From Klebsiella phage KMI7, in sequence record MN101221.1: a stretch of 64,000 nt of DNA. One strand, given 5' to 3'. This document shows positions 16,602-36,206 of the stretch, piece by piece (position 1 is the first letter of the stretch; each line of letters opens with the position of its first letter). The notes under the pieces were generated by a model. That model did no database searches. It was not told the origin of the DNA and was given only the letters and a program-made list of their open reading frames with translations. The translations under genes and the position numbers were made by a program.

Positions 16602-17171
16602 ATGAACTTAAATCACGAATGTTTAAAAGATTTGAGCGATGGTAACGAGATTGGTAACGTTATTTTTCTTGATATCGATGGCGTTCTAAATAATATGCGG
16701 TGCATGAAATTTGGTGAACATATGGACATCGAATGCGCACGACATTTACGCCGGATAGTGAATCACGCTAATTGTGATATCGTCATTTCCTCTACGTGGA
16801 GAATCGGCAACAGTACCCATAATCTACGTGAAATATTTTATCCGTGGGGATTGTATCGGATCATTGGTAAAACTTGCACTAACTTCCCTCATAGCACTGG
16901 AATGCGTGGTGATGAAATCAAGGCATGGATCGATACTTTCGGATGTAAAAACTATCTCATTCTTGATGATGACACCGATATGCTTTCTTCACAAAAAGAA
17001 CATTTTATTAAAACTGATGGGTTCGTTGGGTTGACCGAAGAACAATCCACTTATGCGATCCGTAACATTTTCGGGGTTACTACTCCTTTTTGTCCTGAAT
17101 GCAATGGGTATGGACGTGTTAACGGCTACGACAAATGCGGAACGTGTAACGGTAAAATACTCCGGCTATAA
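16602..17171 (+). CDS. HAD-superfamily phosphatase-like protein with C-terminal DnaJ-type CxxCxGxG zinc finger
   Basis: N-terminal FLDIDGVLNN (HAD motif I); C-terminus CPECNGYGRVNGYDKCGTCNGK (two CxxCxGxG units). Confidence 0.55.
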   Translation: MNLNHECLKDLSDGNEIGNVIFLDIDGVLNNMRCMKFGEHMDIECARHLRRIVNHANCDIVISSTWRIGNSTHNLREIFYPWGLYRIIGKTCTNFPHSTGMRGDEIKAWIDTFGCKNYLILDDDTDMLSSQKEHFIKTDGFVGLTEEQSTYAIRNIFGVTTPFCPECNGYGRVNGYDKCGTCNGKILRL

Positions 17172-19625: not shown

Positions 19626-20465
19626 TCAACCCCAAGTATCAGTTTTCGGTGCGTATGCTGCAACTTTAGCCACAATTTCCTTATCCAGTTCAGCTACCGA
19701 TTTCTGAGGTTTACCACGGGCTTTAACTTTGATGTAGTTTGACTTAACAACAAACATCCCTTTGTTACTTGATTTCTTGATCTCGCTATCAACACCAACT
19801 TTGTTAAAGCTGATCCAAATGTCGCCGTCCATATACTGTTTAAGAGAATCACCCATGTTCAGGATCTTCGCCATAGTAAGGGCCGCGCCTTCGTGGGTAT
19901 CCATGAGAATTTCTTTAGGAACTACACGATCGCGTTTCTGGTTCTGCTGCATAGCAATATGCACATCGTTCATAACCCATACGATATGTACGTTTTCTTT
20001 CTTGTATCCCAGCTTTTCTACATCACGCGCGATGCTTGCCAGCTTGCTCATGCCTTTTAACGTTACGTCAAAGATGAGGTTAGGTTTACGATCTTCTGGT
20101 GCTGCCATAATACCGGAATAAACACGGTTTTGGTTTTTGTTGGAAATGTTGAAAACGTCGGCGATCACATGATGGAGGGTAGATACGTTTTCTGGGTTTT
20201 TGAGGTTCATTGTTTTGACATCATGACCCGTTTGTTTCTTGATCTCTGCTGCGAGTTTATCGCTACCCATTACAAGTTTTTTCAGGGCGTCAACGTCCAG
20301 GGTAATACCTTCGATGCCTAGCAGTTTTTCCAGTGTGAATCCTTTACCGGAACCAGCACCGCCAGCAAGAATAACAACCTGACCGAACTTAGGATAAGCA
20401 CGGCCTCCGAAGGTGATCAGCGCTTCGGTTAAGGTGCTTTCTGTGAATTGTTTAAATGACTTCAT
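19626..20465 (-). CDS. P-loop NTPase, kinase-like (zeta-toxin/PNK-like architecture), substrate unknown
   Basis: Walker A ILAGGAGSGKG; hhhhD segment NLIFDVT; not similar to T4 gp1 or Tk. Confidence 0.45.
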   Translation of the reverse strand: MKSFKQFTESTLTEALITFGGRAYPKFGQVVILAGGAGSGKGFTLEKLLGIEGITLDVDALKKLVMGSDKLAAEIKKQTGHDVKTMNLKNPENVSTLHHVIADVFNISNKNQNRVYSGIMAAPEDRKPNLIFDVTLKGMSKLASIARDVEKLGYKKENVHIVWVMNDVHIAMQQNQKRDRVVPKEILMDTHEGAALTMAKILNMGDSLKQYMDGDIWISFNKVGVDSEIKKSSNKGMFVVKSNYIKVKARGKPQKSVAELDKEIVAKVAAYAPKTDTWG

Positions 20466-20579
20466 GTAAAATTCTCCAGTTTATTTTCTATTATTTATTG
20501 ACACGCTTTCTGACAGTGGTGTATGGTTATGGTGTTCGACGGATAGGCCGGAAGAACTTTAAACCATAAGGTATACGAT

Positions 20580-21455
20580 ATGAAAATCAATTTACATCGC
20601 TTCATTGTAGAATTTTCCCGCGACCGCGACATGGACTCTTACAACTATTACTCCCGTGAAATTGAAGATCGTTTTGCGGCTCATGTTGGATTCCGTCGCC
20701 ACCATACCCCTAAAATGCGTCCTGACCACGATCCGAAGTATAGCCCTATTACATGGCAAGCCCCTATCGATGGTTATGTTGAAGGGATCCGGATCATGAC
20801 GTTTAACGCGATGTATGGAAACGCGTTGATCCATATCGCACGTGAGAAAAAGGCAGAATTCCCTAACGGATGGCGTATTGATGAAGTGATTCAAAACCTT
20901 ATGCAGTTACGACGTGAATACAAAGCGGGTATGTGTCTGCGTAATGAACAGTATCAGATGTATAAAACGTATGCATATATCTCTAAGCACCTAATTAACT
21001 CCATGTTTTACATCGTTGGTAATCATGGTTCCGCTATAGATATCGGTTCTTATGAAATCGTGGCTTATGCTCGCGAACAAGGAAAGGCCGCTGCACTGAA
21101 AATTATTGAATCTGGTGCTATCATTCTTAACCATCGTATTGATACTATTGCTTACTATGGTGATCAGGTTGAGGTTGAAGGCGTACACCATGAACGATTC
21201 AACAAAGCCGTATTTACTAAAAATGGTTATGCTTATGGTAATGACATTATAACTTCTGCGGTTCCTTTCGTTCGTTTAACTGTTGAAGGATTTGGAGAAA
21301 GGTTGCCTTATAAACCGTCAGAAGCTCAAATGTGTGCGACTGCTGAAAGAATAGCCAGAAAGCGGAAAATGTATACCGATGAATACCTGGCGTATGTCAA
21401 CAAGACAAAAGAAGATGTAGATCGAGAAATTTCTTGCATGGATTTATCCATTTGA
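20580..21455 (+). CDS. hypothetical protein (291 aa)
   Basis: TTGACA-18-TATGGT candidate promoter at 20501-20530; no family recognised. Confidence 0.5.
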   Translation: MKINLHRFIVEFSRDRDMDSYNYYSREIEDRFAAHVGFRRHHTPKMRPDHDPKYSPITWQAPIDGYVEGIRIMTFNAMYGNALIHIAREKKAEFPNGWRIDEVIQNLMQLRREYKAGMCLRNEQYQMYKTYAYISKHLINSMFYIVGNHGSAIDIGSYEIVAYAREQGKAAALKIIESGAIILNHRIDTIAYYGDQVEVEGVHHERFNKAVFTKNGYAYGNDIITSAVPFVRLTVEGFGERLPYKPSEAQMCATAERIARKRKMYTDEYLAYVNKTKEDVDREISCMDLSI

Positions 21456-21487
21456 TATAATGTAAGCATCTTTTTAAGGGAGGATAC

Positions 21488-21805
21488 ATGAAAACGATAC
21501 ATTGCAGAAATGAAAACGTTGTTTATTATCACGGTTCGTGTACTGCTGCTGGTATTGAAAGCATGTTATTGCCTCCCTGTGATTCTGATACTCTGTCTGA
21601 AAAGGGCAGAAAGAAAAATTTAGACCGTGTTTTCTTTACCGCTGATATCGGGTTAGCTCGTATATATGCTGGAAGGGCCGCGCGTTCTATAGGTGGGGAT
21701 CCTGTTCTGTACAGGGTTGTGTGTCCGGTTGATGTTGTATGCATGAACGAAGACAAAGGCGCGAGCGTTTACCATGCAGCATGGGCGTTTTGTGAGGAAT
21801 TATGA
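21488..21805 (+). CDS. hypothetical protein (105 aa)
   Basis: strong SD GGGAGGATAC; no confident family. Confidence 0.5.
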   Translation: MKTIHCRNENVVYYHGSCTAAGIESMLLPPCDSDTLSEKGRKKNLDRVFFTADIGLARIYAGRAARSIGGDPVLYRVVCPVDVVCMNEDKGASVYHAAWAFCEEL

Positions 21806-21978
21806 ATGATAAAGTGTTGGCGTATCTCGTTTTCTTGCTGGGATATCGCTTAGAAGTGATGGGTGCGTATTCATCAATGTATGGTGATTTAACGGCTATC
21901 TGGATGGTTGGGTTAGGGGTTGCTTTTACATTCCTTTCCTTTGCAATTGTTAATGAATCGGAAGAGGATATTGTATGA
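21802..21978 (+). CDS. small two-helix membrane protein (58 aa)
   Basis: ATGA overlaps at both ends chain it between ORFs 21488 and 21975; hydrophobic helices; below track cutoff. Confidence 0.35.
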   Translation: MNDKVLAYLVFLLGYRLEVMGAYSSMYGDLTAIWMVGLGVAFTFLSFAIVNESEEDIV

Positions 21979-22301
21979 AACTATATCATGTGATCTACTC
22001 TGGTGTTTTAGGCATTGACAAACAAATGTTAGTTGATGTAATGTGTAAAAAACTCGATGAACGAATTGGAACCCGATACAAAAATCATGTATCGGAAAGT
22101 ATTTTCATCAACGTTGACCACCCAAATGACATGGAAGAAATGGTCAACACTCTTGATGATCAGCAGATCCCGTTTGTTGATAATTTCAACATGAGCGCTG
22201 GAGTGTATACGGTAGTAACTTTTGTTCTAAAAAATGTTGACAGCCGAAACGATAGCGTGTTGAATGTAGTTGCAAAAATCGATTCTACCAAAGGAAAATA
22301 A
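21975..22301 (+). CDS. hypothetical protein (108 aa)
   Basis: ATGA overlap with preceding ORF. Confidence 0.5.
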   Translation: MKLYHVIYSGVLGIDKQMLVDVMCKKLDERIGTRYKNHVSESIFINVDHPNDMEEMVNTLDDQQIPFVDNFNMSAGVYTVVTFVLKNVDSRNDSVLNVVAKIDSTKGK

Positions 22302-22302
22302 T

Positions 22303-22659
22303 ATGAAAATTGTACACCGTAGCATTTCTGAACTGTCTCAAGCCGAAAAAGTGCAAATTCATTTCAAATTCAATGATTTGCGTAAAGGTTATGCCGAAAT
22401 TGCCCGTGAACATGGGTTAGATAACGGCGATATTTACCAGGTAGTACAGGAAATTGAACGTATCCGCGCGTTCCGTTCTGCAAATCTCCCTGTTAAAAAT
22501 GCAATGCGCCGCGAAGCGATCGAAATCCATCGTAAGCGTGTGTACAATTTAGAACGTGCTAAACGTCCGATGAAGAAAGAAAAGAAACCTCGCCCGTTTA
22601 AACGCGAACATCTTAACACCTCTATGGCGCTGGCGTTTCAAGATGCGGGGATTATCTAA
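22303..22659 (+). CDS. hypothetical basic protein (118 aa)
   Basis: track ORF trimmed to ATG with AAAGGAAAATAAT SD. Confidence 0.5.
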   Translation: MKIVHRSISELSQAEKVQIHFKFNDLRKGYAEIAREHGLDNGDIYQVVQEIERIRAFRSANLPVKNAMRREAIEIHRKRVYNLERAKRPMKKEKKPRPFKREHLNTSMALAFQDAGII

Positions 22660-23183
22660 TGCGTAAATCTGCGATGGATCGTTGGGCTAGTATTGCTACT
22701 TCAAACGTAAAACCAAACCAAGCCGCACCTGATGTAGAAGCGGTTCGCAAAGCAAAAGAACCTGAGATTGTGGCCCTTAGCCCCGAACTCATTGAGCATC
22801 GCCGCCGTGCGTCTGCTATTGATTTGGATCTGCGTATTGCGCGTTCATATAATCTCAAGCATGAACACGCCGCAAAGAACAACCATTCTTTTGACCTTAC
22901 TCTGGAAGATTGGAAAGTATTGATGACAACTGAACGTTGTCAGTATTCCGGCAAGATGTTTAGCAATAAACCAGGTAGCCCGTATGCCCGTACAATGGAA
23001 CGTATTAATCCACGTCTGGGATATACACAAGAAAATACAATAGCGGTTATCAATGCCGCTAATGCAGAAAAATCACAGCTTGATGCATTCGTTAAGGGTG
23101 ATGTCATTCTGGATGAAGTAAAAGTGAAGTTGCTGCGTAAAGCACTTTATCAAGTCGAAAAACGTGTGAAAATGAAAGGTTAA
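22659..23183 (+). CDS. hypothetical protein with degenerate HNH-like C-terminal motif
   Basis: ERCQYSGKMF...ERINPRLGYTQENTIAVINAANAEKSQ resembles the CxxCG...HH.xP..GG...N...LC..CN..K HNH pattern with catalytic positions substituted. Confidence 0.35.
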   Translation: MRKSAMDRWASIATSNVKPNQAAPDVEAVRKAKEPEIVALSPELIEHRRRASAIDLDLRIARSYNLKHEHAAKNNHSFDLTLEDWKVLMTTERCQYSGKMFSNKPGSPYARTMERINPRLGYTQENTIAVINAANAEKSQLDAFVKGDVILDEVKVKLLRKALYQVEKRVKMKG

Positions 23184-23186
23184 ATT

Positions 23187-24206
23187 ATGTTTAAGAAATA
23201 TTCTTCTCTGACTAACCATTATGAAGGTAAGTTCATCAATGGTGTAATTATGAACGGGCTTACTGGCGGTGTGTGGGTTGCGCGTGAAAAGATCCACGGT
23301 GCTAACTTTAGCTTTATCACCGATGACGGCGTTACCGTTACCCCCGCAAAGCGTACTGATGTTGTGAAGCCAGCCGAAGATTTTTATGGCTGTTCAGCAG
23401 TAGTTGCAAAGTATTCACCAGGGATCCGTAAGATGTGGGAAACCCTCAAAAAGACCGGAACGTATGATGATTTGGTTATTCAAGTCTACGGTGAATTTGC
23501 GGGACGCGGTGTACAGAAAGATGTTGATTACGGCGAAAAAGATTTCTACGTATTCGATATCCGTGTAAATGGTGAATTCCTTCCGGATAACCTGTGCTCG
23601 CTGATCTCTCGATCTCATGGCCTGAAAATGGCCCCGCTGTTGGGATATGGTACTTTTGAAGAGATCAAAGAACTGCCGATTACGTTTGAATCTGTTGTGA
23701 ATAAAGCAAATAGCGGCATTGGTAGTGATAATACAGTATATGGTGAATTCGTATATCCTATCATGGAAGTTGAAGAGGGCAACATTGCAGAAGGGTTTGT
23801 AATGAAACCTGTTTCACCTGCTTTTATGCCAAACGGTGAACGCGTTGCAATCAAATGCAAAACAACCAAATTCACTGAGAAGAAAGCGAAGAAAGCAACC
23901 CGCTTTAATGCTCCGGTTTCACTGTCAGAAAAAGACAAAAACCAACTCGATGAGTTTGTTTGTTACCTTACTGAGAACCGTGTGAAAAACGTTCTTTCGA
24001 AACTGGATCTGGCTTCGATTACTGCGAAAGATTTCGGTCGCATTATGGGCTTAACTGTTCAGGATGCTATCGAAGAAATCAACCGTAATCACGGGCCTTT
24101 CCTCGAACAGTTCGAAGACCCAGCAATGGCTAAAAAGCTGTTTGTAACCGAAGCCCAAAACATGATTCGCCCTGTATGGGGCAAAATCCTGAACCATGAA
24201 TTTTAA
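23187..24206 (+). CDS. rnlB: RNA ligase 2 (Rnl2)
   Basis: 339 aa; N-terminus MFKKYSSL.NHY; nucleotidyltransferase motif KIHGANFS (KxHG); collinear with T4 Rnl2. Confidence 0.9.
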   Translation: MFKKYSSLTNHYEGKFINGVIMNGLTGGVWVAREKIHGANFSFITDDGVTVTPAKRTDVVKPAEDFYGCSAVVAKYSPGIRKMWETLKKTGTYDDLVIQVYGEFAGRGVQKDVDYGEKDFYVFDIRVNGEFLPDNLCSLISRSHGLKMAPLLGYGTFEEIKELPITFESVVNKANSGIGSDNTVYGEFVYPIMEVEEGNIAEGFVMKPVSPAFMPNGERVAIKCKTTKFTEKKAKKATRFNAPVSLSEKDKNQLDEFVCYLTENRVKNVLSKLDLASITAKDFGRIMGLTVQDAIEEINRNHGPFLEQFEDPAMAKKLFVTEAQNMIRPVWGKILNHEF

Positions 24207-24209
24207 ACT

Positions 24210-24728
24210 ATGAACAGTCACGGAAACTATAGAACTATTTCTGATGAAATAGCCGCAATAAGAGAACTCCTTCAACACGTTTCAGTTGATGTTACTTCTG
24301 GAAATATCGTATGGTCTTCTCCGCGTCAAGGTAGGAGGGTTGGTGATTCCGCTGGTACTATGAAAGATGGATATTGTGTTATAAAGTTTCAAAAGAAACA
24401 TTATCGCAGACATCGGATCATCTTTTATGTTGCTAATGGGTATCTTCCCGCTCTTGTTGACCATAAGAATGGTGTTGAATTTGGTGATGGTATAGATAAT
24501 TTGCAAGAGGCAACGCAACAAGAGAACATAAGAAAGCAGATAAAGAAACGAAGTAATGCTTCTGGAAAAAGAGGGGTTATTTTTGATAAAAGAAGAAATA
24601 ACTATCAAGCGCGAATAGTTGTTGATGGTAAGCAGATTTTTCTAGGTTCATATGATAACCCTGAAAAGGCTTATGAAGTTTACAACGAAAAAGCAAAAGA
24701 ATTGTTCGGTAATTTTTATGTCGAATGA
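24210..24728 (+). mobile_element. free-standing HNH homing endonuclease with AP2 DNA-binding domain
   Basis: HNH_3 pattern GYCVIKF...HRIIFYVANGYLPALVDHKNG...DNLQEATQQEN plus AP2 domain SGKRGVIFDKRRNNYQARIVVDGKQIFLGSYDNPEKAYEVYNEKAKELFG. Confidence 0.75.
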
Positions 24729-25305
24729 TTTTAGTACAGTAATTACGACTGCCAAGACAGTAACATTAATTGGCAGTCGCAAACCTCCTGAACGTATCGC
24801 AAACATTGCTGTTAAAATCGGACGTGCTTTGAACGAACGCAGGATCAGGGCTTATTCTGGCGGCGCTCCTGGTATGGATAGTCACTTTCTGTTTGACTAT
24901 AGTCCGGATAACAGGTGTATAATCCTTCCTGAGAACGGGTTTAACGGCCTTTTCTCAAACGGAAAGGATATCATCGACTTTCGAGATTTAAACACACAGA
25001 AAGCCGCTGACGAAGCCAGAAAGGTAGCAGGTAACTTCGATACACAGAATGAATACGTTCAAAGAAGGTATGCGCGAAACACGATTCAAGTTCTTCGTGA
25101 AAATCTTGACAATCCAACTGATTTCGTTTTATTTTGGGCGGAAGAACGTGAAGGATGTGTTAAAGGTGGAACCGCGATCGCTGTAAGATTGGCTAGGTTG
25201 TACAGGGTTCCATGTTTCAATCTCTTCAAAGAAAGTGTATTGAACGATGTGTGTGATACGTTAGGGATCAATATCAAACCCCCAACGTTGGATTTTTTAT
25301 GGTAA
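24718..25305 (+). CDS. SLOG/DprA(Smf)-like Rossmann-fold protein
   Basis: TVTLIGSRKPPERIANIAVKIGRALNERRIRAYSGGAPGMDS matches the GSR...SGxAxGxD core of DprA/SLOG; 11-nt overlap with HNH gene. Confidence 0.5.
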   Translation: MSNDFSTVITTAKTVTLIGSRKPPERIANIAVKIGRALNERRIRAYSGGAPGMDSHFLFDYSPDNRCIILPENGFNGLFSNGKDIIDFRDLNTQKAADEARKVAGNFDTQNEYVQRRYARNTIQVLRENLDNPTDFVLFWAEEREGCVKGGTAIAVRLARLYRVPCFNLFKESVLNDVCDTLGINIKPPTLDFLW

Positions 25306-25817
25306 TTGAACATGCGCCCTTACTTCGTGAAACATACGAAAGATGGGCTGTTAATAACGCAATAGGTGAAAATATGATTCATGTACGTAGTATCGGTGCT
25401 GACGGCGAAACTCCGGTAGAAGGCCGATCTCCCACTCTCGCAGAACGAGCAAGAGAAATTATCAACGATCAGAATGCTAAGATGATCGAACATGCGCGGG
25501 ATACAATCACAAAGGGTGTTCTGAAACACGCGACACAACAAAGCCTTATCTATGATATGAAGCACGATATCGGCTCTTGTCTGGGTATTGAATGTACTCG
25601 CTATGCATTCCAACGCGTTTCTGAATGGTTGGAAGAAGAAGGGCTAAAATTCGATACAGAAGAAAAACGCAACGCCGCTAAGATCACAAATTCTCTGGCT
25701 AGTAAGTACAATCAAACGTATCGAAACCAGGAAGAACGCGAAGTGTTCGGTTTCAAAATTCCTGAAAGGAAAACAGATCGCCGTGTAAGTGAATTCACTT
25801 TTTACATTAGTTGGTAA
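25299..25817 (+). CDS. hypothetical protein (172 aa)
   Basis: overlapping start with previous ORF; no family recognised. Confidence 0.5.
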   Translation: MVIEHAPLLRETYERWAVNNAIGENMIHVRSIGADGETPVEGRSPTLAERAREIINDQNAKMIEHARDTITKGVLKHATQQSLIYDMKHDIGSCLGIECTRYAFQRVSEWLEEEGLKFDTEEKRNAAKITNSLASKYNQTYRNQEEREVFGFKIPERKTDRRVSEFTFYISW

Positions 25818-25824
25818 AAAAGTG

Positions 25825-25853
25825 TTGACGGGGGTTGGTTATAGTAGTATTCT
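25825..25853 (+). promoter_or_regulatory. sigma70-type early promoter TTGACG-17-TATTCT
   Basis: good -35 hexamer, 17-nt spacer, weak -10; 40 nt upstream of ORF 25895. Confidence 0.45.
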
Positions 25854-25894
25854 AACTCCCGTAGACAAGACACTAACTAAGAAGGATAAACATC

Positions 25895-26155
25895 ATGGAA
25901 ATCGTAATGAAAGCAACTTATGCTGGATATTGCCTGGAAGCAAAAGGTGTTGCTAACAACGGCAAAGGCTTACGGGCCAATGTTGAAGCAATGCTGGATG
26001 AATTACATGCAATGTACGAATATGACAACGTAGCGGGTAGCGTTCTTATCCAGGCGTTGGAAGTTGATGGTGTTGATTGTGCTGGTTGGTGGGATGCTTA
26101 CATTGACTACAACGATAACCGGGTTTACCTGTTGAGCAACAAAGATTATTTCTAA
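25895..26155 (+). CDS. hypothetical protein (86 aa)
   Basis: SD GAAGGATAAACATC. Confidence 0.5.
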   Translation: MEIVMKATYAGYCLEAKGVANNGKGLRANVEAMLDELHAMYEYDNVAGSVLIQALEVDGVDCAGWWDAYIDYNDNRVYLLSNKDYF

Positions 26156-26164
26156 GGAACCACT

Positions 26165-26614
26165 ATGAGCGATGAAGCTGAGGCTTTAGAAGATTGGGCT
26201 GATTTTGATGACGAAGAAGATGGGGAATATTTCTGCGTTAACAGTGGTGCTTACAAAGACCGTTTAGAACTTCGTGAACTTTTATCCGGTTCCTCTCAAA
26301 TATCAGGATCCAAACGAAAAAGCAGTAAACAAAAAGTTCAGTATAGTGATGGTTCTGTACGTGATGAAACTGTTGTTGCTGAATTCCGTGGTCGGGTTAT
26401 CACAAAAGAACGACAAATTGATGTAAAGAACTTGTATGAAGTGGCTAAGGCTGCTAAAATAGGTTCTGTGATTGTTTGCCCTGTGTGCAAAGAAAAACAC
26501 ACAAAGACAACGTATCATAAAGTTTTCTGTTCGAATGGCAGAAAAACCAGTAAGGATTGTAAGTCTAAATATCACAATACAATCCATCCCGAACGACTGG
26601 ATCGGGTATTTTAA
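26165..26614 (+). CDS. hypothetical protein with acidic N-terminus and C-terminal zinc ribbon
   Basis: N-terminal 25 aa about 50% D/E; C-terminal CPVC...CSNG...C...H. Confidence 0.5.
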   Translation: MSDEAEALEDWADFDDEEDGEYFCVNSGAYKDRLELRELLSGSSQISGSKRKSSKQKVQYSDGSVRDETVVAEFRGRVITKERQIDVKNLYEVAKAAKIGSVIVCPVCKEKHTKTTYHKVFCSNGRKTSKDCKSKYHNTIHPERLDRVF

Positions 26615-26641
26615 AATAAACTTAAAACGTGGAGTACGTTT

Positions 26642-28075
26642 ATGAACAACAAAACTTTCGAAGAACTGAACAGCATCATCACTTCCGTAGATTCCTATAA
26701 GGTTTCTCACTGGTCGCAATATCCAACTGGCTCCGAAGAGGCGCTGTTTTATATTGAATCTCGTGGTGGCAAATTTGATCAAGTAGTTACGGCTGGCTGT
26801 AACCGCCTTGCGCAAATCCTATCACGTCCGGTGACTATGGAAAACGTAGATTTTGCTAATCGGTTGTACAAAATGCACTTTGGGCGCGAAATCTTCAACT
26901 ACAAAGGGTGGAAAGAAATTGCAGAACTGGGTTACATCCCTCTTGAATTCAGAGCAATTCCGGAAGGAACCCCAGTAGCGGTTAAAAATCCGGTTGCAAC
27001 TTTCCATGCTGGGAAAAATGCGCTGTGGTTAGCAGGACACGTCGAAACCCTGGCGATCAGGGGAGTATGGTTCCCTTCAACCGTAGCAACTCTATCCCGC
27101 GAATGTAAAAAAGTGTTGAAGAAATATCTCAAGAAAACCTCCGATCTCGAAGGTGAAGCATTTGATATGGTATTACGTACCCGTTTGCATGACTTCGGCG
27201 CACGTGGAACCTCTTCTGCTGAATCTGCTGGTATTGGTGGCCTCGCGCACCTGTATAACTTCCTCGGTACTGATACCGTAGAAGCGCTGATTATGGCTAT
27301 CTCTCTGTTTGAAGATTGTCAGAAAGCGTTTGATGATGGTGAAATGGCGGCTGGTATTTCAATTCCTGCTCGCGAACATTCCACTACCGTTTCTTACGGC
27401 AAAGAAAACGAAGACCTTGCGTACAAAAACAGTATTGAGATCTTCGGTGAAGGGATGTATGCATGTGTGTATGATTCCTGGGATTTTAAAGCGGCGGTTC
27501 GCCGTATCGCAGAATATAAAGATTCGATTCTTTCTAAGGGCGGTACTCTGGTAGTTCGTCCGGATTCTGGTGATATGGTAGACAATATCATGTACGCTCT
27601 TGAAGAACTGGGCCGTATCTTTGGCTATATAGTGAACTCAAAAGGGTATAAAGTACTACACCCAGCAGTAAGGATCATTCAAGGCGATGAAATTCATGGC
27701 CCTGAAACAATCAATCGGGTGTTGAACTGGATGGAGTCTAACCGTTGGGCGTCTGAAAACATCGCGTTTGGTATGGGCGGCGGATTGCTTCAAGAAGTTA
27801 CCCGCGACACTCAAAAATATGCGATGAAAATGTGCGCAATCAAAATTAACGGTGTGTGGACTGGTGTGTATAAATGTCCAAAAGGCGCTGAATGGAAAAA
27901 GAGTAAAAAAGGGTTGTTGATGACTATCACTGATGGTGTTAACTTTAAAACCATTGATACTCTGGAACAGAAAGTGCCGGAAGGCTGGAAAGATGCTATG
28001 ATCACATACTATGTCAACGGAAAGATTACTGCCCGTGACACTTTAGAGGAAATTAGGAACCGTGCCGGGATTTAG
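26642..28075 (+). CDS. nadV: nicotinamide phosphoribosyltransferase (NAMPT/NadV)
   Basis: 477 aa; SYKVSHW, GYIPLEFRAIPEGTPVA, HDFGARGTSSAESAGIGGLAHLYNFLGTDT, VVRPDSGD match NadV signatures. Confidence 0.9.
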   Translation: MNNKTFEELNSIITSVDSYKVSHWSQYPTGSEEALFYIESRGGKFDQVVTAGCNRLAQILSRPVTMENVDFANRLYKMHFGREIFNYKGWKEIAELGYIPLEFRAIPEGTPVAVKNPVATFHAGKNALWLAGHVETLAIRGVWFPSTVATLSRECKKVLKKYLKKTSDLEGEAFDMVLRTRLHDFGARGTSSAESAGIGGLAHLYNFLGTDTVEALIMAISLFEDCQKAFDDGEMAAGISIPAREHSTTVSYGKENEDLAYKNSIEIFGEGMYACVYDSWDFKAAVRRIAEYKDSILSKGGTLVVRPDSGDMVDNIMYALEELGRIFGYIVNSKGYKVLHPAVRIIQGDEIHGPETINRVLNWMESNRWASENIAFGMGGGLLQEVTRDTQKYAMKMCAIKINGVWTGVYKCPKGAEWKKSKKGLLMTITDGVNFKTIDTLEQKVPEGWKDAMITYYVNGKITARDTLEEIRNRAGI

Positions 28076-28364
28076 TATCCGCAAAAACGACAAAGGAACC
28101 GTGATTTTCTATGACAACATGCCCCTTGTAGCTCGCAAGGGGCTTTTTGCTAAAATCGCTGGGTATTCCTTTAAACTGGAAGAAGTCAACGACGAAACAC
28201 TAAAAGAGATCGTAAGAATTGCCTTACAGTTAAGAGGTAAGAAAGACGAACAAAGAGCTATTGACATGATCAATAAATTGGGGGAAACTCAATGCTTCAT
28301 AGTGAATCGTGGTTACAAGTACGATACCATTGCAAAATTTGAAAAAGGGCTTTGTGAATTATGA
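28062..28364 (+). CDS. hypothetical protein (100 aa)
   Basis: overlaps nadV end by 14 nt and dam start (ATGA). Confidence 0.4.
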   Translation: MPGFSIRKNDKGTVIFYDNMPLVARKGLFAKIAGYSFKLEEVNDETLKEIVRIALQLRGKKDEQRAIDMINKLGETQCFIVNRGYKYDTIAKFEKGLCEL

Positions 28365-29212
28365 GTTATTATGGTGTGATCCCATACACAGGAAACAAGC
28401 AAAAGCTACTTCCTGAACTGTTCAAATTATTTCCAGACAGAAACAGCTATATGCGATTCATCGACTGTTTTTGTGGTGGTTTGAGTGTGTCACTAAACGT
28501 CCCTAAACCCGTTCTAAGCAACGATTACGATCGGACGTTGATTGATATGTATAAGCGCCTTCAAATGCTTCCTGACCTCTCTCCGGTGCGAGAATTGATT
28601 AAACAACATGGGCTGGGTAAGAACGAGAAAGAAGCGTATCTCACATTTCGTGATGCATATAATAAGAACAAGGATCCGCTATGGCTCTATGTTCTGATCC
28701 TGCATTCGTTTAGTAATGTTAATCGAACCAACGATAAAGGCGATTTTAACGCCAATTTTGGTTGTAGAACGTTGAATGATTCTACCGTTAAACGGTTTGA
28801 ACACTTCAAAAACAATGTTCGTGGAATTGAATTCTCTAGCGCATCGTTTAAGGATCTTGATATCTGCTTGAATGATTTTGTGTACTGCGATCCGCCGTAC
28901 CTGATCACTGATGCAGTTTATAACAAATTCTGGAACGAAGAACGCGAGCATGAATTATATGATTTTCTCGATAATTTAAACTCTGATGGTATCAAGTTTG
29001 GTTTATCAAACGTGACACATCATGCAGGAAAGCAAAATGATATCCTGATCGAGTGGATGCAAAAATATAATGTGCATAACCTCGATAAAAAGTATCTGTT
29101 AGGCCAGCATACTGATTCTTACGAACAAAATAAAACGCAAGAAGTCTACGTGTGCAACTATCAGAAACGCGACGTAAATACATACCCTGAAACACTGGAT
29201 GACTTAATGTAA
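28361..29212 (+). CDS. dam: DNA adenine methyltransferase Dam (GATC)
   Basis: 283 aa; AYTGNKQ.LLPEL, FCGGLSVSLNV, catalytic DPPY; collinear with T4 Dam. Confidence 0.9.
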   Translation: MSYYGVIPYTGNKQKLLPELFKLFPDRNSYMRFIDCFCGGLSVSLNVPKPVLSNDYDRTLIDMYKRLQMLPDLSPVRELIKQHGLGKNEKEAYLTFRDAYNKNKDPLWLYVLILHSFSNVNRTNDKGDFNANFGCRTLNDSTVKRFEHFKNNVRGIEFSSASFKDLDICLNDFVYCDPPYLITDAVYNKFWNEEREHELYDFLDNLNSDGIKFGLSNVTHHAGKQNDILIEWMQKYNVHNLDKKYLLGQHTDSYEQNKTQEVYVCNYQKRDVNTYPETLDDLM

Positions 29213-29220
29213 GGTAACAT

Positions 29221-29496
29221 ATGTTTAAGATTTTTGGTTATATCCCTTCTGTTTACAATTGCGCTCCATGCCTGAATTCTAAACGTCTCCTGGACGCAAA
29301 ACGAAAAGAATATGAGTTTGTTTCTGTAGCCGATGAAAAAGACGCAGACGGCAAACCGATCCTGAATGAAACGGTCATTTCTGAACTCGAAAGCCTGTTG
29401 GGTACTCGTAGACTGACCATGCCTCAAATTTTCCACGATGGTAAGCACATCGGCGGCTTTGACCAACTGCGTGAGTACGTTCGCACATTGGGATAA
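29221..29496 (+). CDS. nrdC: glutaredoxin NrdC (phage thioredoxin)
   Basis: 91 aa; MFK.FGY...C..C...KRLL; C-terminus LTMPQIFHDGKHIGGFDQLREY almost identical to T4 NrdC. Confidence 0.85.
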   Translation: MFKIFGYIPSVYNCAPCLNSKRLLDAKRKEYEFVSVADEKDADGKPILNETVISELESLLGTRRLTMPQIFHDGKHIGGFDQLREYVRTLG

Positions 29497-29527
29497 ATAT
29501 TAACACCTTTATTTGATTGGTGTTATT

Positions 29528-30010
29528 ATGCTCACTAAACGTATTACTAAGAAAGATTATCCATCCATTAAACAAGCTCTTTTTGAACAGCAAAACGGCT
29601 TGTGCGCGTTATGTGGTCGCCCTTTAGAGGGTGACCTTGAAAAACATCACCTTGACCATGATCATGCTCTATCTGGTTCTAATGCCGGACGTGTGCGCGG
29701 CCTCCTATGTAACCTATGCAACGGTACAGAAGGTATTGTAAAGCACAAATTCAATCGTTCTGGTCTGGTTTCCCGTGATGTTGATTACATCGAATGGCTA
29801 GAAAGCCTGGTAGCATACCTCAAACGCGACTATTCACAAAACCGTATGCACGACAAATTTATACCCGATAAGGTTAAATGGTTTACACGCCTGACTAAAT
29901 CGGATATGATAGCCGAAATGATTTCTATGGGCTTTGAGTACTCAGAAACTGAGGATCGCAAGGCTTTAGCAAAGAGCTATAGAAGACAATTAATGAAGGC
30001 AACCAAATGA
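29528..30010 (+). CDS. 49: endonuclease VII (Holliday junction resolvase, gp49)
   Basis: track TTG start trimmed to ATG (MLTKRI...); QNG.C.LC.R.L......HLDHDH.L.G..AG.VRGLLCNLCN..EG..KHKFNRSGL and C-terminal MIAEM...GFEY.E match T4 EndoVII. Confidence 0.9.
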   Translation: MLTKRITKKDYPSIKQALFEQQNGLCALCGRPLEGDLEKHHLDHDHALSGSNAGRVRGLLCNLCNGTEGIVKHKFNRSGLVSRDVDYIEWLESLVAYLKRDYSQNRMHDKFIPDKVKWFTRLTKSDMIAEMISMGFEYSETEDRKALAKSYRRQLMKATK

Positions 30011-32130
30011 AAGTAGAAAAACGCGACGGAACAATCGTCGATTTCGATAAAGAAAAAATTCGTAACGCAGTTTATAAAGCTGGCGGTACGATGACGGATG
30101 AAGACAGTGCGATTATGCTTGTGTTGCGTAGTCAGATCCGCAACGGTAAAGCAATGAAGATTTCACAAATTCAAGAACTTGTTGAAGAATCTTTGATGAA
30201 GACAAATCCGACTGTTGCCCGTGCATATATCGAATATCGTCATGATCGTGATATCTCCCGTGAACAAAACGGAAAATTATTCCGTGATATCAAGGGTTTG
30301 ATGACTCTTAGTAACAAAGAATTAACCAACGAAAACGCAAACAAAGATTCTCGCGTATTCCCGACTAAACGCGATCTTCTGGCTGGTATCGTTTCTAAAC
30401 ATATGGCGCGTAACCATATTCTACCGAAACATATTGTTGCGGCGCATGATTCCGGTGATATTCATTATCACGATCTGGATTACAGCCCGTTCACCCCATA
30501 CACTAACTGCTGTCTTGTTGACCTGAAAGGCATGTTAGAAAACGGGTTCCGGATGGGTAACGCTGATATCGAACCGCCAAAATCAATCGGTGTTGCTACT
30601 GCTCTTATGGCTCAGATCACCGCACAGATTGCTTCTCACCAGTACGGCGGGACAACCTTTGCAAACGTCGATCAGGTGCTGGCCCCTTACGTTGAAATGA
30701 CGTACAACAAACACTTTAAAGATGCTGTTTGGTACGGGGTTCCTAAATCAAAACAGTATGCGATGGAAAAAACAGAAAAGGATGTATTCGATGCGTTCCA
30801 GTCATACGAATATGAAGTAAACACCTTACATACTGCAAATGGACAGACGCCTTTTGTCACAATCACTTTTGGTATGGGTACTGGTTGGCGCGAACGCATG
30901 ATCCAGAAAGCAATTCTGAAAAACCGTATTCGTGGACTGGGTAAAAAGGGCATTACTCCCGTATTCCCAAAACTGGTTATGTTTATGGAAAAAGGGATTA
31001 ACCTTAATCCGGAAGACAGAAACTATGATATTAAGAAATTGGCCCTGGAATGTTCTTCAAAGCGTATGTATCCGGATATTATTAGCGCGGCTAATAACCG
31101 TCGTATTACTGGCTCTAGCATTCCTGTATCTCCTATGGGTTGTCGTAGTTTCCTTAGCGTGTGGAATGATGAGCACGGTAATGAAATTCTTGATGGACGT
31201 AATAACCTGGGCGTTGTGACAATCAACCTTCCTCGTATTGCGATTGAAGCCCAAACACAGGAAGATGAAGACGCGCATGATGCATTTTGGCGTATCCTTG
31301 ATGAACGTCTGGAACTGTGTTTTGAAGCCCTGATGACTCGTATTGATAGTCTCAGAGGTGTTAAAGCCAGTGTAGCCCCGATCCTTTATACAGAAGGTGC
31401 GTTTGGTGTAAGGTTGAAACCCGATGATGAAATATTGGAACTGTTCAAAAATGGGCGTAGTTCTATCAGTCTGGGATACATCGGATTGCATGAAACTCTG
31501 ATGCTTTTCGGATCTGGACAGCACCCATTCGACCGGATCGGTTCTCAGAACATGGGTAGACTGATTCTGGAATATCTACGCGCTGCGACCGAAGCATGGA
31601 AAAAGAAAACCGGATTTGGGTTTAGTCTGTATTCAACCCCTGCTGAATCTCTATGTCATCGTTTCTGCAAACTGGACTATGAGAAATTCGGAAGTATCAA
31701 AGGGATCACAGATAAAGGCTGGTACACTAACAGTTTTCATCTGGACGTTGACCGCAAGGTAACACCGTTCGAGAAAATCGACTATGAAGCCGATTATCAT
31801 TACATTGCAACTGCTGGACATATCAGCTATGTAGAATTCCCTGATATGAAAAACAACCTGGAAGCCCTTGAAAAAGTCTGGGATTATGCAATGGATAAAC
31901 TGGACTACTTCGGAACAAACCTTCCTGTTGATAAATGCTTTGAATGTGGTTCGGATGATGAATTTAAGCCAACAGAAGACGGTTTTCATTGTACCCATTG
32001 TGGGAACCACGATCCGGAAAAAATGAGCGTCACGCGCCGTACATGCGGTTATTTGGGTGCTCCTGCTGTCCGTGGGTTCAACGAAGGTAAGAACAAAGAA
32101 ATGATGCATCGCATTAAGCATCAAAATTAA
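30007..32130 (+). CDS. nrdD: anaerobic ribonucleoside-triphosphate reductase NrdD (class III), intron-less
   Basis: 707 aa; N-terminal ATP-cone, C-terminal zinc site CFECGSDDE...CTHCG and glycyl-radical motif RRTCGYLG; ATGA overlap with gene 49. Confidence 0.9.
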   Translation: MKVEKRDGTIVDFDKEKIRNAVYKAGGTMTDEDSAIMLVLRSQIRNGKAMKISQIQELVEESLMKTNPTVARAYIEYRHDRDISREQNGKLFRDIKGLMTLSNKELTNENANKDSRVFPTKRDLLAGIVSKHMARNHILPKHIVAAHDSGDIHYHDLDYSPFTPYTNCCLVDLKGMLENGFRMGNADIEPPKSIGVATALMAQITAQIASHQYGGTTFANVDQVLAPYVEMTYNKHFKDAVWYGVPKSKQYAMEKTEKDVFDAFQSYEYEVNTLHTANGQTPFVTITFGMGTGWRERMIQKAILKNRIRGLGKKGITPVFPKLVMFMEKGINLNPEDRNYDIKKLALECSSKRMYPDIISAANNRRITGSSIPVSPMGCRSFLSVWNDEHGNEILDGRNNLGVVTINLPRIAIEAQTQEDEDAHDAFWRILDERLELCFEALMTRIDSLRGVKASVAPILYTEGAFGVRLKPDDEILELFKNGRSSISLGYIGLHETLMLFGSGQHPFDRIGSQNMGRLILEYLRAATEAWKKKTGFGFSLYSTPAESLCHRFCKLDYEKFGSIKGITDKGWYTNSFHLDVDRKVTPFEKIDYEADYHYIATAGHISYVEFPDMKNNLEALEKVWDYAMDKLDYFGTNLPVDKCFECGSDDEFKPTEDGFHCTHCGNHDPEKMSVTRRTCGYLGAPAVRGFNEGKNKEMMHRIKHQN

Positions 32131-32132
32131 TC

Positions 32133-32171
32133 AAAAAGCCCTTGACTTCGGTTGAGGGCTTTTGTTATATT
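32133..32171 (+). promoter_or_regulatory. terminator-promoter cassette family A (PeSL-like): hairpin GCCCTTGACTTCGGTTGAGGGC with embedded -35 TTGACT, T-run, extended -10 TGtTATATT
   Basis: near-identical copies at 50033-50054 and 63049-63070 (opposite orientation); 17-nt spacer from TTGACT to TATATT. Confidence 0.7.
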
Positions 32172-32197
32172 GGGCCTATCGAAAAAGGAGACATATT

Positions 32198-32440
32198 ATG
32201 AAACTGACTAAGAAAATGACCGATGTAGTGGCATGTGCGTTTGCATTAGGCTACAAAGTTGAAAATCATCCAACTCGCGTTGAAGTCATCAACCCTATCA
32301 AGGGCCGTCCTGGTTTGGTTCTGTGTGAAGACGGTACAGCATATCGTAATGATGTCTCTTTAGAACTGGCAACTACTATCCGCACCGCAAAACAAATGAA
32401 AGATGTTCTCATTAGCGGCGCAAAATTGAGGGCTTTATGA
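32198..32440 (+). CDS. hypothetical protein (80 aa)
   Basis: track ORF trimmed to ATG with AAAAGGAGACATATT SD located just downstream of the cassette promoter. Confidence 0.5.
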   Translation: MKLTKKMTDVVACAFALGYKVENHPTRVEVINPIKGRPGLVLCEDGTAYRNDVSLELATTIRTAKQMKDVLISGAKLRAL

Positions 32441-32934
32441 TGTATTGGACAAAAGATAAATTTGTTTTTCGTGATGATACGTGCTTTGGGACTGCATACC
32501 GAAACTTAGCTATTCGTGGAGGTTCGTTTTCGGCTAATGATTTGTCTAAGGTAGTATTTCCTATTAAAGTTACTGAGTATGACGTATTCGGTGTTAAAGG
32601 GTTTACTGATTACTTTGGTACAAAGTTTGAATCAGAATCCTACATTTTTACTAATAGCGATCGTGAATTGTTCAAAAAACACGTTGTTGTTAAAGAAAAA
32701 CCGCTATTACCAAAAGAAGATGAAGCAAAGGAAATCTATGATCTCCTGAACATGCTTGATAATCTCGGTACGTGTCATCTGTTCGGTAAACGCGCCCGTA
32801 AAGCGAAAGATGTTCTCAACCTGTTACGCTCTCGCCGTAATTATCTGATCCGGGAAGCGGAACGTAATCTGAAAAATTCAGAAAAACAAGTTGATTTTCA
32901 TAAATCAACCCTTGCGAAATTAAAGGCTTTGTGA
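32437..32934 (+). CDS. hypothetical protein (165 aa)
   Basis: ATGA overlap with previous ORF. Confidence 0.5.
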   Translation: MMYWTKDKFVFRDDTCFGTAYRNLAIRGGSFSANDLSKVVFPIKVTEYDVFGVKGFTDYFGTKFESESYIFTNSDRELFKKHVVVKEKPLLPKEDEAKEIYDLLNMLDNLGTCHLFGKRARKAKDVLNLLRSRRNYLIREAERNLKNSEKQVDFHKSTLAKLKAL

Positions 32935-35177: not shown

Positions 35178-35246
35178 CCTAATGTGTAACTATGGTAATC
35201 TTACCACATCGTAAATGACGATTAACTTTAATTGAGAGATAATATC

Positions 35247-36206
35247 ATGATCCTGAATTTCAAAACCCGTAAAGAAGCGCGTAACTACTGCTGGAAGTGG
35301 AACATTCCCCTGAAAACTATCCGTAATACAGGGCGCGGTTCTTGCCCGTGGACAGTTCAAGCAAATGAACTGAAAACGTTCGTGGTTGGTAAAACTTACA
35401 AACTGGTTGACCGTGAAGGGTTTACTACCAATTCACACGGCGGATCTAACACCGCAAACACTATCCAAGCGAGACAGATCGAAAAATTCCTGAATAACGA
35501 GGTAAAAATTATCTCGAAAACCAATTCAGATACTTTCAAAATTGAGCATACTCCGGAAATGACTTTTAGCTCTCTGCGTTCGTGGGAAGCTCGTTATTTC
35601 GTTGAAGTTGGCGCGGCTCCGGTTAAGAAAACGAAAGCTAAACCGAAAAAAACCAACGTTACGGCTCCGGTTGCGCCTGTTGCACCAGTAACCGCAGATC
35701 TTGATCAAATGCTTGATGGTGGTTCGGCAATGTCGGTTGAATTAAATCCGACTGAATTTGTTGAAGGCCGTTCGTATGTTCTGGTTAAACCGCAGCAATT
35801 TAAAAATCGTTGTGGTGCTAACCACGGGATCAAATCATATACCGATGAACACAGTAATGGTGTATACACCGTTTACCATACGAATAATCTCAATCAACAT
35901 CAATTGAGCAAAACGGTAGAAACCATTGATTCCCAGACAGGGAAAGTTGGTTACTATCTGGTTGATTCTGAACGTTCGTTCTTCCGTGAACTGGCGACCG
36001 GAACTGCTGATGAACCTGTTAGCGTTTCCGGTAATAGCGCTATCGCTATCAACGTAGACGAAGCGGCTAAGAAAGAAGAAATCGCAAAAGCAATGGCACA
36101 GCTTGAAGAAGCGGTTAAAGCCCATGATGACGCGCTTCAAAATCTGCGTACTGCTTCCGACCTGGTTCGCAAAGCTGCTCGTAAAGTAGCAGAAGTAAGC
36201 AAGTAA
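35247..36206 (+). CDS. hypothetical protein (319 aa)
   Basis: track ORF trimmed to ATG with GAGAGATAATATC; central PVAPVAPV linker; followed by terminator. Confidence 0.5.
   Translation: MILNFKTRKEARNYCWKWNIPLKTIRNTGRGSCPWTVQANELKTFVVGKTYKLVDREGFTTNSHGGSNTANTIQARQIEKFLNNEVKIISKTNSDTFKIEHTPEMTFSSLRSWEARYFVEVGAAPVKKTKAKPKKTNVTAPVAPVAPVTADLDQMLDGGSAMSVELNPTEFVEGRSYVLVKPQQFKNRCGANHGIKSYTDEHSNGVYTVYHTNNLNQHQLSKTVETIDSQTGKVGYYLVDSERSFFRELATGTADEPVSVSGNSAIAINVDEAAKKEEIAKAMAQLEEAVKAHDDALQNLRTASDLVRKAARKVAEVSK

Follow-up and report, generated by a model that had tools for sequence, protein, structure and literature searches.

Phage-encoded NadV of Klebsiella phage KMI7 as the probable Nampt half of the published NARP2 pathway

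The nadV gene of Klebsiella phage KMI7 is concluded, with a probability that we put at roughly 0.9, to be the nicotinamide phosphoribosyltransferase (Nampt) half of the published NAD+ reconstitution pathway NARP2 in a T4-like phage of the KP15/KP27/Matisse/phiEap-3 type. NARP2 consists of the Nampt and Nmnat of the KVP40 type (Osterman et al, 2024; bioRxiv 10.1101/2024.02.11.579819, later published in Nature), and the finding itself is already known, the phage group having been catalogued as NARP2. In the same study, PRPP was the preferred substrate of the purified KVP40 Nampt and ADPR-PP was used weakly in vitro, and the KVP40 Nampt and Nmnat genes were reported to abolish the defence by type I Thoeris and DSR2 and to raise NAD+ (Osterman et al, 2024). 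Furthermore, of the phages whose Nampt belongs to this clade, 94% were reported to have an Nmnat gene at some place in the genome, and NARP1 and NARP2 were found together in no phage (Osterman et al, 2024). In Table S2 of that study, this NadV is listed for at least 21 phages of the group (Matisse, KP15, KP27, Miro, phiEap-3, PMBT1 and 15 others) under the label “Nmnat-associated.” The KMI7 protein is identical to these entries at 398 of the 399 residues that the table shows, the difference being T330I. The preliminary description of this DNA had placed the gene in a KVP40-type NadV/NatV route, now seen as an NAD+ reconstitution pathway, and this placement was upheld by the clade identity and by the label in Table S2.

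The gene was studied in a 64-kb stretch of the phage genome (MN101221.1), called here the window, which shares 97–99% identity with some 100 complete ~176-kb genomes of T4-like Klebsiella/Enterobacter phages and thus represents about one third of the genome (64 kb of 176 kb). The named close relatives are the phiKp series, phiEap-3, Lemur_ER36, KP5 and PSKm2DI, and the group is that of KP15/KP27/Matisse/phiEap-3. The window is collinear with Klebsiella phage Lemur_ER36 (PP738775.1) from position 124659 through the record origin to 12110. The phage collection had no exact match to the window; over 25 kb, phiEap-3 came closest with 97.8%, and the NadV protein was 99.6–99.8% identical to those of the GenBank relatives in tblastn. 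The features in and around nadV are as follows (window positions).

26165–26614, plus strand: upstream ORF of 149 aa, acidic at the N-terminus and rich in Cys/His at the C-terminus, PHROG 7424
26631–26634, plus strand: ribosome-binding site GGAG, 7 nt 5′ of the nadV ATG
26642–28075, plus strand: nadV ORF (Nampt, first enzyme of NARP2), ATG to stop, 477 aa
27377–27379, plus strand: His246 codon of nadV, equivalent of human NAMPT His247
28062–28364, plus strand: ORF 28062, 100 aa, conserved, PHROG 7497, GTG start
28121–28148, plus strand: terminator-like hairpin with a 9-bp stem, 6 GC pairs, followed by TTTTT
from 28361, next after ORF 28062: D12-class Dam methylase

The protein encoded by nadV matched both Pfam domains of the family, NAMPT_N (PF18127; 2.5e-22, residues 12–95) and NAPRTase (PF04095; 1.2e-40, residues 181–426), and its score for the NCBIfam equivalog NF006629, 461 bits over residues 10–475, exceeded the cutoff of 405. 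It also matched PHROG 448 “nicotinamide phosphoribosyl transferase” (1e-164) and could be aligned end to end with the solved structures of the Xanthomonas NAMPT (PDB 7yqo; 5.5e-104) and the human NAMPT (3dgr_A; about 4e-86). When the alignment with 3dgr_A was examined in native numbering, all 18 active-site positions checked were found to be kept, namely Y19, H183, D184, F185, R188, D211, H246, D278, R306, D308, G348, D349, G379, G380, R388, K396, K411 and K419. Tyr19 corresponds to Y18 of the human enzyme, Phe185 to F193, Arg188 to R196, Asp211 to D219, His246 to H247, Arg306/Asp308 to R311/D313, Gly379-Gly380 to G383-G384 and Arg388 to R392. In the human NAMPT structures, these include the nicotinamide-stacking Tyr/Phe pair, Asp219, the catalytic His247, which becomes autophosphorylated, and the Arg, Lys and Gly residues that bind PRPP and phosphate. 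The codon 330 of nadV (27629–27631) encodes Ile here and Thr in at least 21 sequences of the same phage group in Table S2, and none of the active-site residues checked is close to it. Thus, the identification of the gene product as a bona fide NadV/Nampt, already proposed in the preliminary description, is firm as far as sequence comparison goes, and rests on both the Pfam domains, NF006629, PHROG 448, the solved NAMPTs and the 18 of 18 active-site positions.

The nadV gene lies in a block of genes of one direction, in the order rnlB, HNH, DprA-like, three small ORFs, nadV, ORF 28062, dam, nrdC, endonuclease VII and nrdD. Only 27 nt separate it from the preceding ORF, and the promoter scan gave no promoter-like site in this gap. 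The sigma-70-like sites in the nadV region were not in excess (20 against 23.1 expected from shuffles), and the T4 late TATAAATA motif was absent from 20000–32500. Together with the upstream small ORFs, nadV is probably co-transcribed. Two MotA-box-like matches were noticed inside or 3′ of nadV. Within the same block, 77 nt are shared by the end of an ORF like HNH and AP2-domain homing endonucleases (24210–24728, plus strand) and the first part of the DprA-like ORF (24652–25305, plus strand). As the PHROG match of the DprA-like protein sets in only at residue 34, its true start may be further downstream.

Because Namat, the nicotinamide ADP-ribose transferase of NARP1, is a homologue of Nampt and goes under the same GenBank name, it was necessary to examine which of the two nadV encodes. 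If the protein were a mis-annotated Namat, it would work with an Adps kinase on ADPR-PP. Such a reading could draw on the routine annotation of Namats as “nicotinamide phosphoribosyl transferase,” on the nearly identical active-site residues of the two enzymes and on the weak in vitro use of ADPR-PP by the KVP40 Nampt. The Namat-type protein of Erwinia phage M7 keeps 17 of the 18 active-site positions checked, and therefore the assignment was judged by clade, length, partner and published classification. Compared over the full length, the KMI7 NadV shares 49–50% of its residues, and the whole active site, with its counterpart in Vibrio phage XZ1 (Schizotequatrovirus, the genus of KVP40), a KVP40-like Nampt of similar length; with the M7 protein, which has 610 aa and a large insertion, it shares only 25–29%, in two pieces. 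The PDB matches were likewise split between the solved true NAMPTs (E-104 to E-86) and a weaker group (E-58 to E-48). In M7, the Namat-type gene lies directly 3′ of a Prs-like gene (gp083/gp084). Homologues of Adps/Prs were detected by tblastn with the M7 Adps neither in the window (best E = 0.18, a short chance match) nor in positions 1–174522 of PP738775.1 (best E = 0.49, also a short chance match), the last 1.9 kb of this record being covered by the equivalent stretch of the window. An ORF of 324 aa at 35232–36206 was considered as a Prs/Adps candidate for its size and was rejected as it had no Pfam match; neither this ORF nor nine other unassigned ORFs of the window gave a Prs, NMNAT or Nudix match in Pfam.

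The counts in phage records pointed in the same direction. Of the Klebsiella phage records, 199 contain a NadV-like gene, 125 a NatV and 75 an Adps. The first number is close to the sum of the other two, and the three fit two non-overlapping groups, one of the NatV type and the other of the Adps type; the Adps records, 75 in Klebsiella phages, are fewer than those of this NadV clade, which number at least 109. Of the two marks of NARP1, a Prs-like Adps was found neither in the window nor in positions 1–174522 of PP738775.1, and a place in the Namat clade was not found either. Judged from these comparisons, the predicted protein falls in the KVP40-type Nampt clade and not in the Namat clade. 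Since Table S2 gives its class as “Nmnat-associated” and no phage has both pathways, a Namat function for nadV appears to us extremely improbable.

The preliminary description had also stated that no ORF of the window contains the NMNAT motif (H/T)xGH. The conclusion on the enzyme stood, as no NMNAT was detected in the 64-kb window by tblastn with the NatV of the clade (best E = 2.1); the statement on the motif had to be corrected, as one match is present, the TAGH at nt 31810 in the ORF of NrdD, the anaerobic ribonucleotide reductase, which was rejected as a chance match. The partner had therein been called either elsewhere or missing, and the search for NatV or NMNAT and Nudix in the rest of the genome, carried out on the relative PP738775.1, decided for the former, as a gene for an NMNAT-Nudix fusion is present in near-identical complete genomes outside the part that corresponds to the window.

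77357–78415 of PP738775.1, minus strand: natV, 352 aa, annotated as “cytidyltransferase”

This NatV contains CTP_transf_like and NUDIX domains and matched the NCBIfam model of bifunctional NMN adenylyltransferase/Nudix over its full length (2e-78). It stays under the strict NCBIfam cutoffs of the bacterial equivalog (264 against 397 bits), which is not surprising in a phage copy that has diverged. End-to-end alignments were obtained with the NadM-Nudix crystal structures of Synechocystis (2qjo, 1.2e-52) and Francisella (2qjt, 2.3e-45). The motifs HYGH at residue 18, SSTNLR at residue 143 and a Nudix box at residue 243 were noticed, and in the latter the last Gly of REUxEExGU is replaced so that it reads RELLEEVRI. 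In PP738775.1, natV lies on the opposite strand, outside the window, at a distance of about 73–75 kb from nadV; the first base of the window follows some 46 kb after it. The GenBank name “bifunctional NMN adenylyltransferase/Nudix hydrolase” is already in use in several records of the group, for example those of Matisse, phiKp_5, phiKp_16 and P61_1. From these near-identical relatives we infer that the KMI7 genome itself would carry natV. Two other proteins of the relative were considered as partners and set aside: the 335-aa “nucleotidyltransferase” encoded near natV belongs to the RlaP family of RNA repair and is not an NMNAT, and the stand-alone Nudix of 135 aa is a MutT/NudE-like protein of a generic kind.

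When the co-occurrence of the two genes was counted in 50,697 phage records, NadV with at least 99% identity was found in 109 records and NatV with at least 95% identity in 111 records. In the 60–80% identity band, formed by Pseudotevenvirus and Cronobacter/Enterobacter phages, there were 67 records with NadV and 65 with NatV, and the ratio of nadV to natV across the clade is thus about 1:1. In T4-like phages the two genes are dispersed, and no NatV was found within 3.5–4 kb of nadV in XZ1, EC-F1 and LPCS28. In some other lineages they are adjacent: positions 215.6 kb (natV) and 218.3 kb (nadV) were read for the Klebsiella jumbo phage KP13-7, and 127.7 and 129.5 kb for the two genes of Caulobacter phage CcrSwift. 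This adjacency supports a functional link. An Nmnat in the same genome, a mark of NARP2, was found in the complete relatives, the 64-kb window itself being without one. In the Cronobacter phage vB_CsaM_leE (KX443552.1, 152637–154053), nadV is annotated as two CDSs and was recovered by tblastn in two pieces over 1417 nt, which indicates a frameshift (pseudogene or sequencing error) and not an insertion.

These observations bear upon the idea, left open in the preliminary description, that NadV acts alone and supplies NMN to a host enzyme, the NMN then being converted to NAD+ by NadR of the host or by PncC followed by NadD/NadE. A 64-kb window without an NMNAT would agree with it, and so would the finding that roughly 6% of the phages whose Nampt is of this clade lack a detectable Nmnat (Osterman et al, 2024). 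Against this, none of the close full-length relatives that were examined or listed lacks NatV, the counts across the clade are near parity, all 21 group phages among those listed in Table S2 are “Nmnat-associated,” and the position of natV is simply outside the genome part that the window covers. As only 64 kb of 176 kb were in view, the apparent absence of NMNAT is an artefact, and the idea of NadV feeding a host enzyme by itself was left unsupported by the NMNAT-Nudix genes of the relatives and the label in Table S2; we regard it as very unlikely. More generally, because the NARP2 genes are dispersed in T4-like phages, little can be concluded from a partner that seems to be missing when only part of a large phage genome is in view.

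In the NARP2 reading, NadV would convert nicotinamide and PRPP into NMN, and the N-terminal NadM-type domain of NatV would convert NMN and ATP into NAD+; both steps are predicted by homology and have been demonstrated for KVP40. The Nudix domain of NatV would probably split ADP-ribose into AMP and ribose-5-phosphate, as suggested by the homology to NadM-Nudix proteins, and the ribose-5-phosphate could again be turned into PRPP by the host Prs. With PRPP regenerated by the host Prs, both the products of Sir2/TIR cleavage would be recyclable. NadV and NatV together would thus keep NAD+ up during infection, also where Sir2/TIR-type defences cleave NAD+. Both enzymes are presumably active, and counter-defence would be their main benefit. 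A different emphasis is that the NadV/NatV pair is chiefly an auxiliary metabolic module, providing NAD+ for redox-demanding nucleotide synthesis or for ADP-ribosyltransferases, and is not primarily directed against defence. NARP2 raises NAD+ without any defence system and uses PRPP and not cleavage products only, nadV is found amid the nucleotide-metabolism genes nrdC, nrdD, nrdG and dam, and the original work on KVP40, as conveyed by Osterman et al (2024), framed the pair as salvage. The KVP40 pair abolished the Thoeris and DSR2 defence, on the other hand, and the metabolic emphasis is compatible with the NARP2 reading since it involves the same enzymes and the same chemistry and differs in the selective benefit that is stressed. 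We hold it possible but rather unlikely that metabolism is the chief role.

The neighbours of nadV were confirmed as named in the preliminary description, that is, ORF 26165 with its Cys/His-rich C-terminus, ORF 28062 and then dam. The GTG start codon of ORF 28062 overlaps the last 14 nt of nadV and therefore the two are probably translationally coupled. In EC-F1, residues 3–20 of ORF 28062 are kept and Gln stands in place of the internal Met that GenBank annotators chose as the start, and the PHROG 7497 profile has a length of 102, of which the 81-aa version of the ORF covers positions 22–102 only. These features suggest that the protein probably has 100 aa from the GTG, and not 81 or 68 aa as in the GenBank relatives. 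The terminator-like hairpin has the arms GCCCCTTG...CAAGGGGC and is located 46 nt 3′ of the nadV stop codon within the coding sequence of ORF 28062. It is kept in the Pseudotevenvirus EC-F1 though the flanks have diverged, with −17.5 kcal/mol in both, and may act as a partial terminator, as a stabiliser of the RNA end that marks the end of the nadV message, or as a translational control element. A homologue of ORF 26165 with 56% identity is found at the same position in EC-F1 and none beside nadV in LPCS28 or XZ1. Similarly, the synteny of ORF 28062 with nadV is limited to the Slopekvirus and Pseudotevenvirus groups, and no homologue of it is found beside nadV in LPCS28 or XZ1. Since neither of the flanking ORFs accompanies nadV in more distant phages, there is no evidence for membership of either in the pathway. 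It is accordingly highly doubtful that ORF 26165 and, above all, ORF 28062 with the hairpin would be accessory or regulatory parts of NARP2 in T4-like enterobacterial phages; if they were, the small flanking ORFs would tune the activity or expression of NadV and spare PRPP when no defence is active.

Some other genes of the window and of the relative were noticed in the course of the analysis. Genes of the RNA-repair type are scattered through the genome: a protein with the HAD_SAK_2 “Swiss-army-knife RNA repair” domain and an Rnl2-type RNA ligase are encoded in the window at 16602–17171 and 23187–24206 (both plus strand), and an RlaP-family nucleotidyltransferase is encoded 1.5 kb from natV in PP738775.1 (L003:24806–25813, minus strand). 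A Macro-domain protein of 157 aa, annotated as “phosphatase” and with a weak match to ThsA_Macro, is encoded outside the window, 3.4 kb from natV in the relative (PP738775.1, 81849–82322, minus strand; L003:31849–32322). This protein might bind ADP-ribose or act on it, and a link to conflicts over NAD+ and ADPR is conceivable. In the window, an ORF of 279 aa (19626–20465, minus strand), “hypothetical” in the relatives, encodes a P-loop kinase domain of the Zeta-toxin-like type (Pfam, 9.5e-08).

KP15, KP27, Matisse, phiEap-3 and many candidates for therapeutic Klebsiella phages carry the complete NARP2, and therefore a resistance of this group to NAD+-depleting defences (Thoeris, DSR, SIR2-HerA) is to be expected, which is relevant to the choice of phages for therapy. 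The annotation has yet to follow, as many GenBank records still name NatV as “cytidyltransferase” or “hypothetical protein” and NadV as “nicotinate phosphoribosyltransferase” or “hypothetical protein.”

Among the known systems, NARP3 is composed of a PnuC-like transporter and a NadR-like bifunctional enzyme (PMC13464706) and is unrelated to nadV; neither PnuC nor NadR is present in the annotation of PP738775.1. The NARP1 pathway of Bas63, SpbetaL1 and M7 (Adps and Namat) resembles the present system in that Namat is a Nampt homologue with nearly the same catalytic residues and that NAD+ is likewise rebuilt. It requires an adjacent Prs-like Adps and uses ADPR-PP, whereas here no Adps was found in the window or in PP738775.1 and an NMNAT partner is found in the relatives instead. 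Compared with the NadV-NadM salvage of bacteria, the phage nadV product aligns end to end with the Xanthomonas NAMPT and the predicted chemistry is the same, whereas the genes here are phage-borne and scattered over the genome. The bacterial NadM-Nudix proteins of Synechocystis (slr0787, 2qjo) and Francisella (2qjt) show the same fusion as the phage NatV, which falls under the bacterial equivalog cutoffs. The NadV and NatV of KVP40 have the same two-enzyme design of a Nampt and a fused NMNAT-Nudix; the NatV homologues of KVP40-like Vibrio phages are about 38–40% identical, and the genes are non-adjacent in either of the T4-like lineages. KVP40 differs in genus and host range; the enzyme data are those of the KVP40 genes, and the identity of ~49% was judged from XZ1 and not from KVP40 itself. 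The closest likeness is to KP15, KP27, Matisse, Miro and phiEap-3 (Straboviridae of the Slopekvirus type), in which the flanking genes are as here and T330I, away from the active site, is the sole difference seen in the 399 residues of NadV that Table S2 shows; presumably nothing functional differs.
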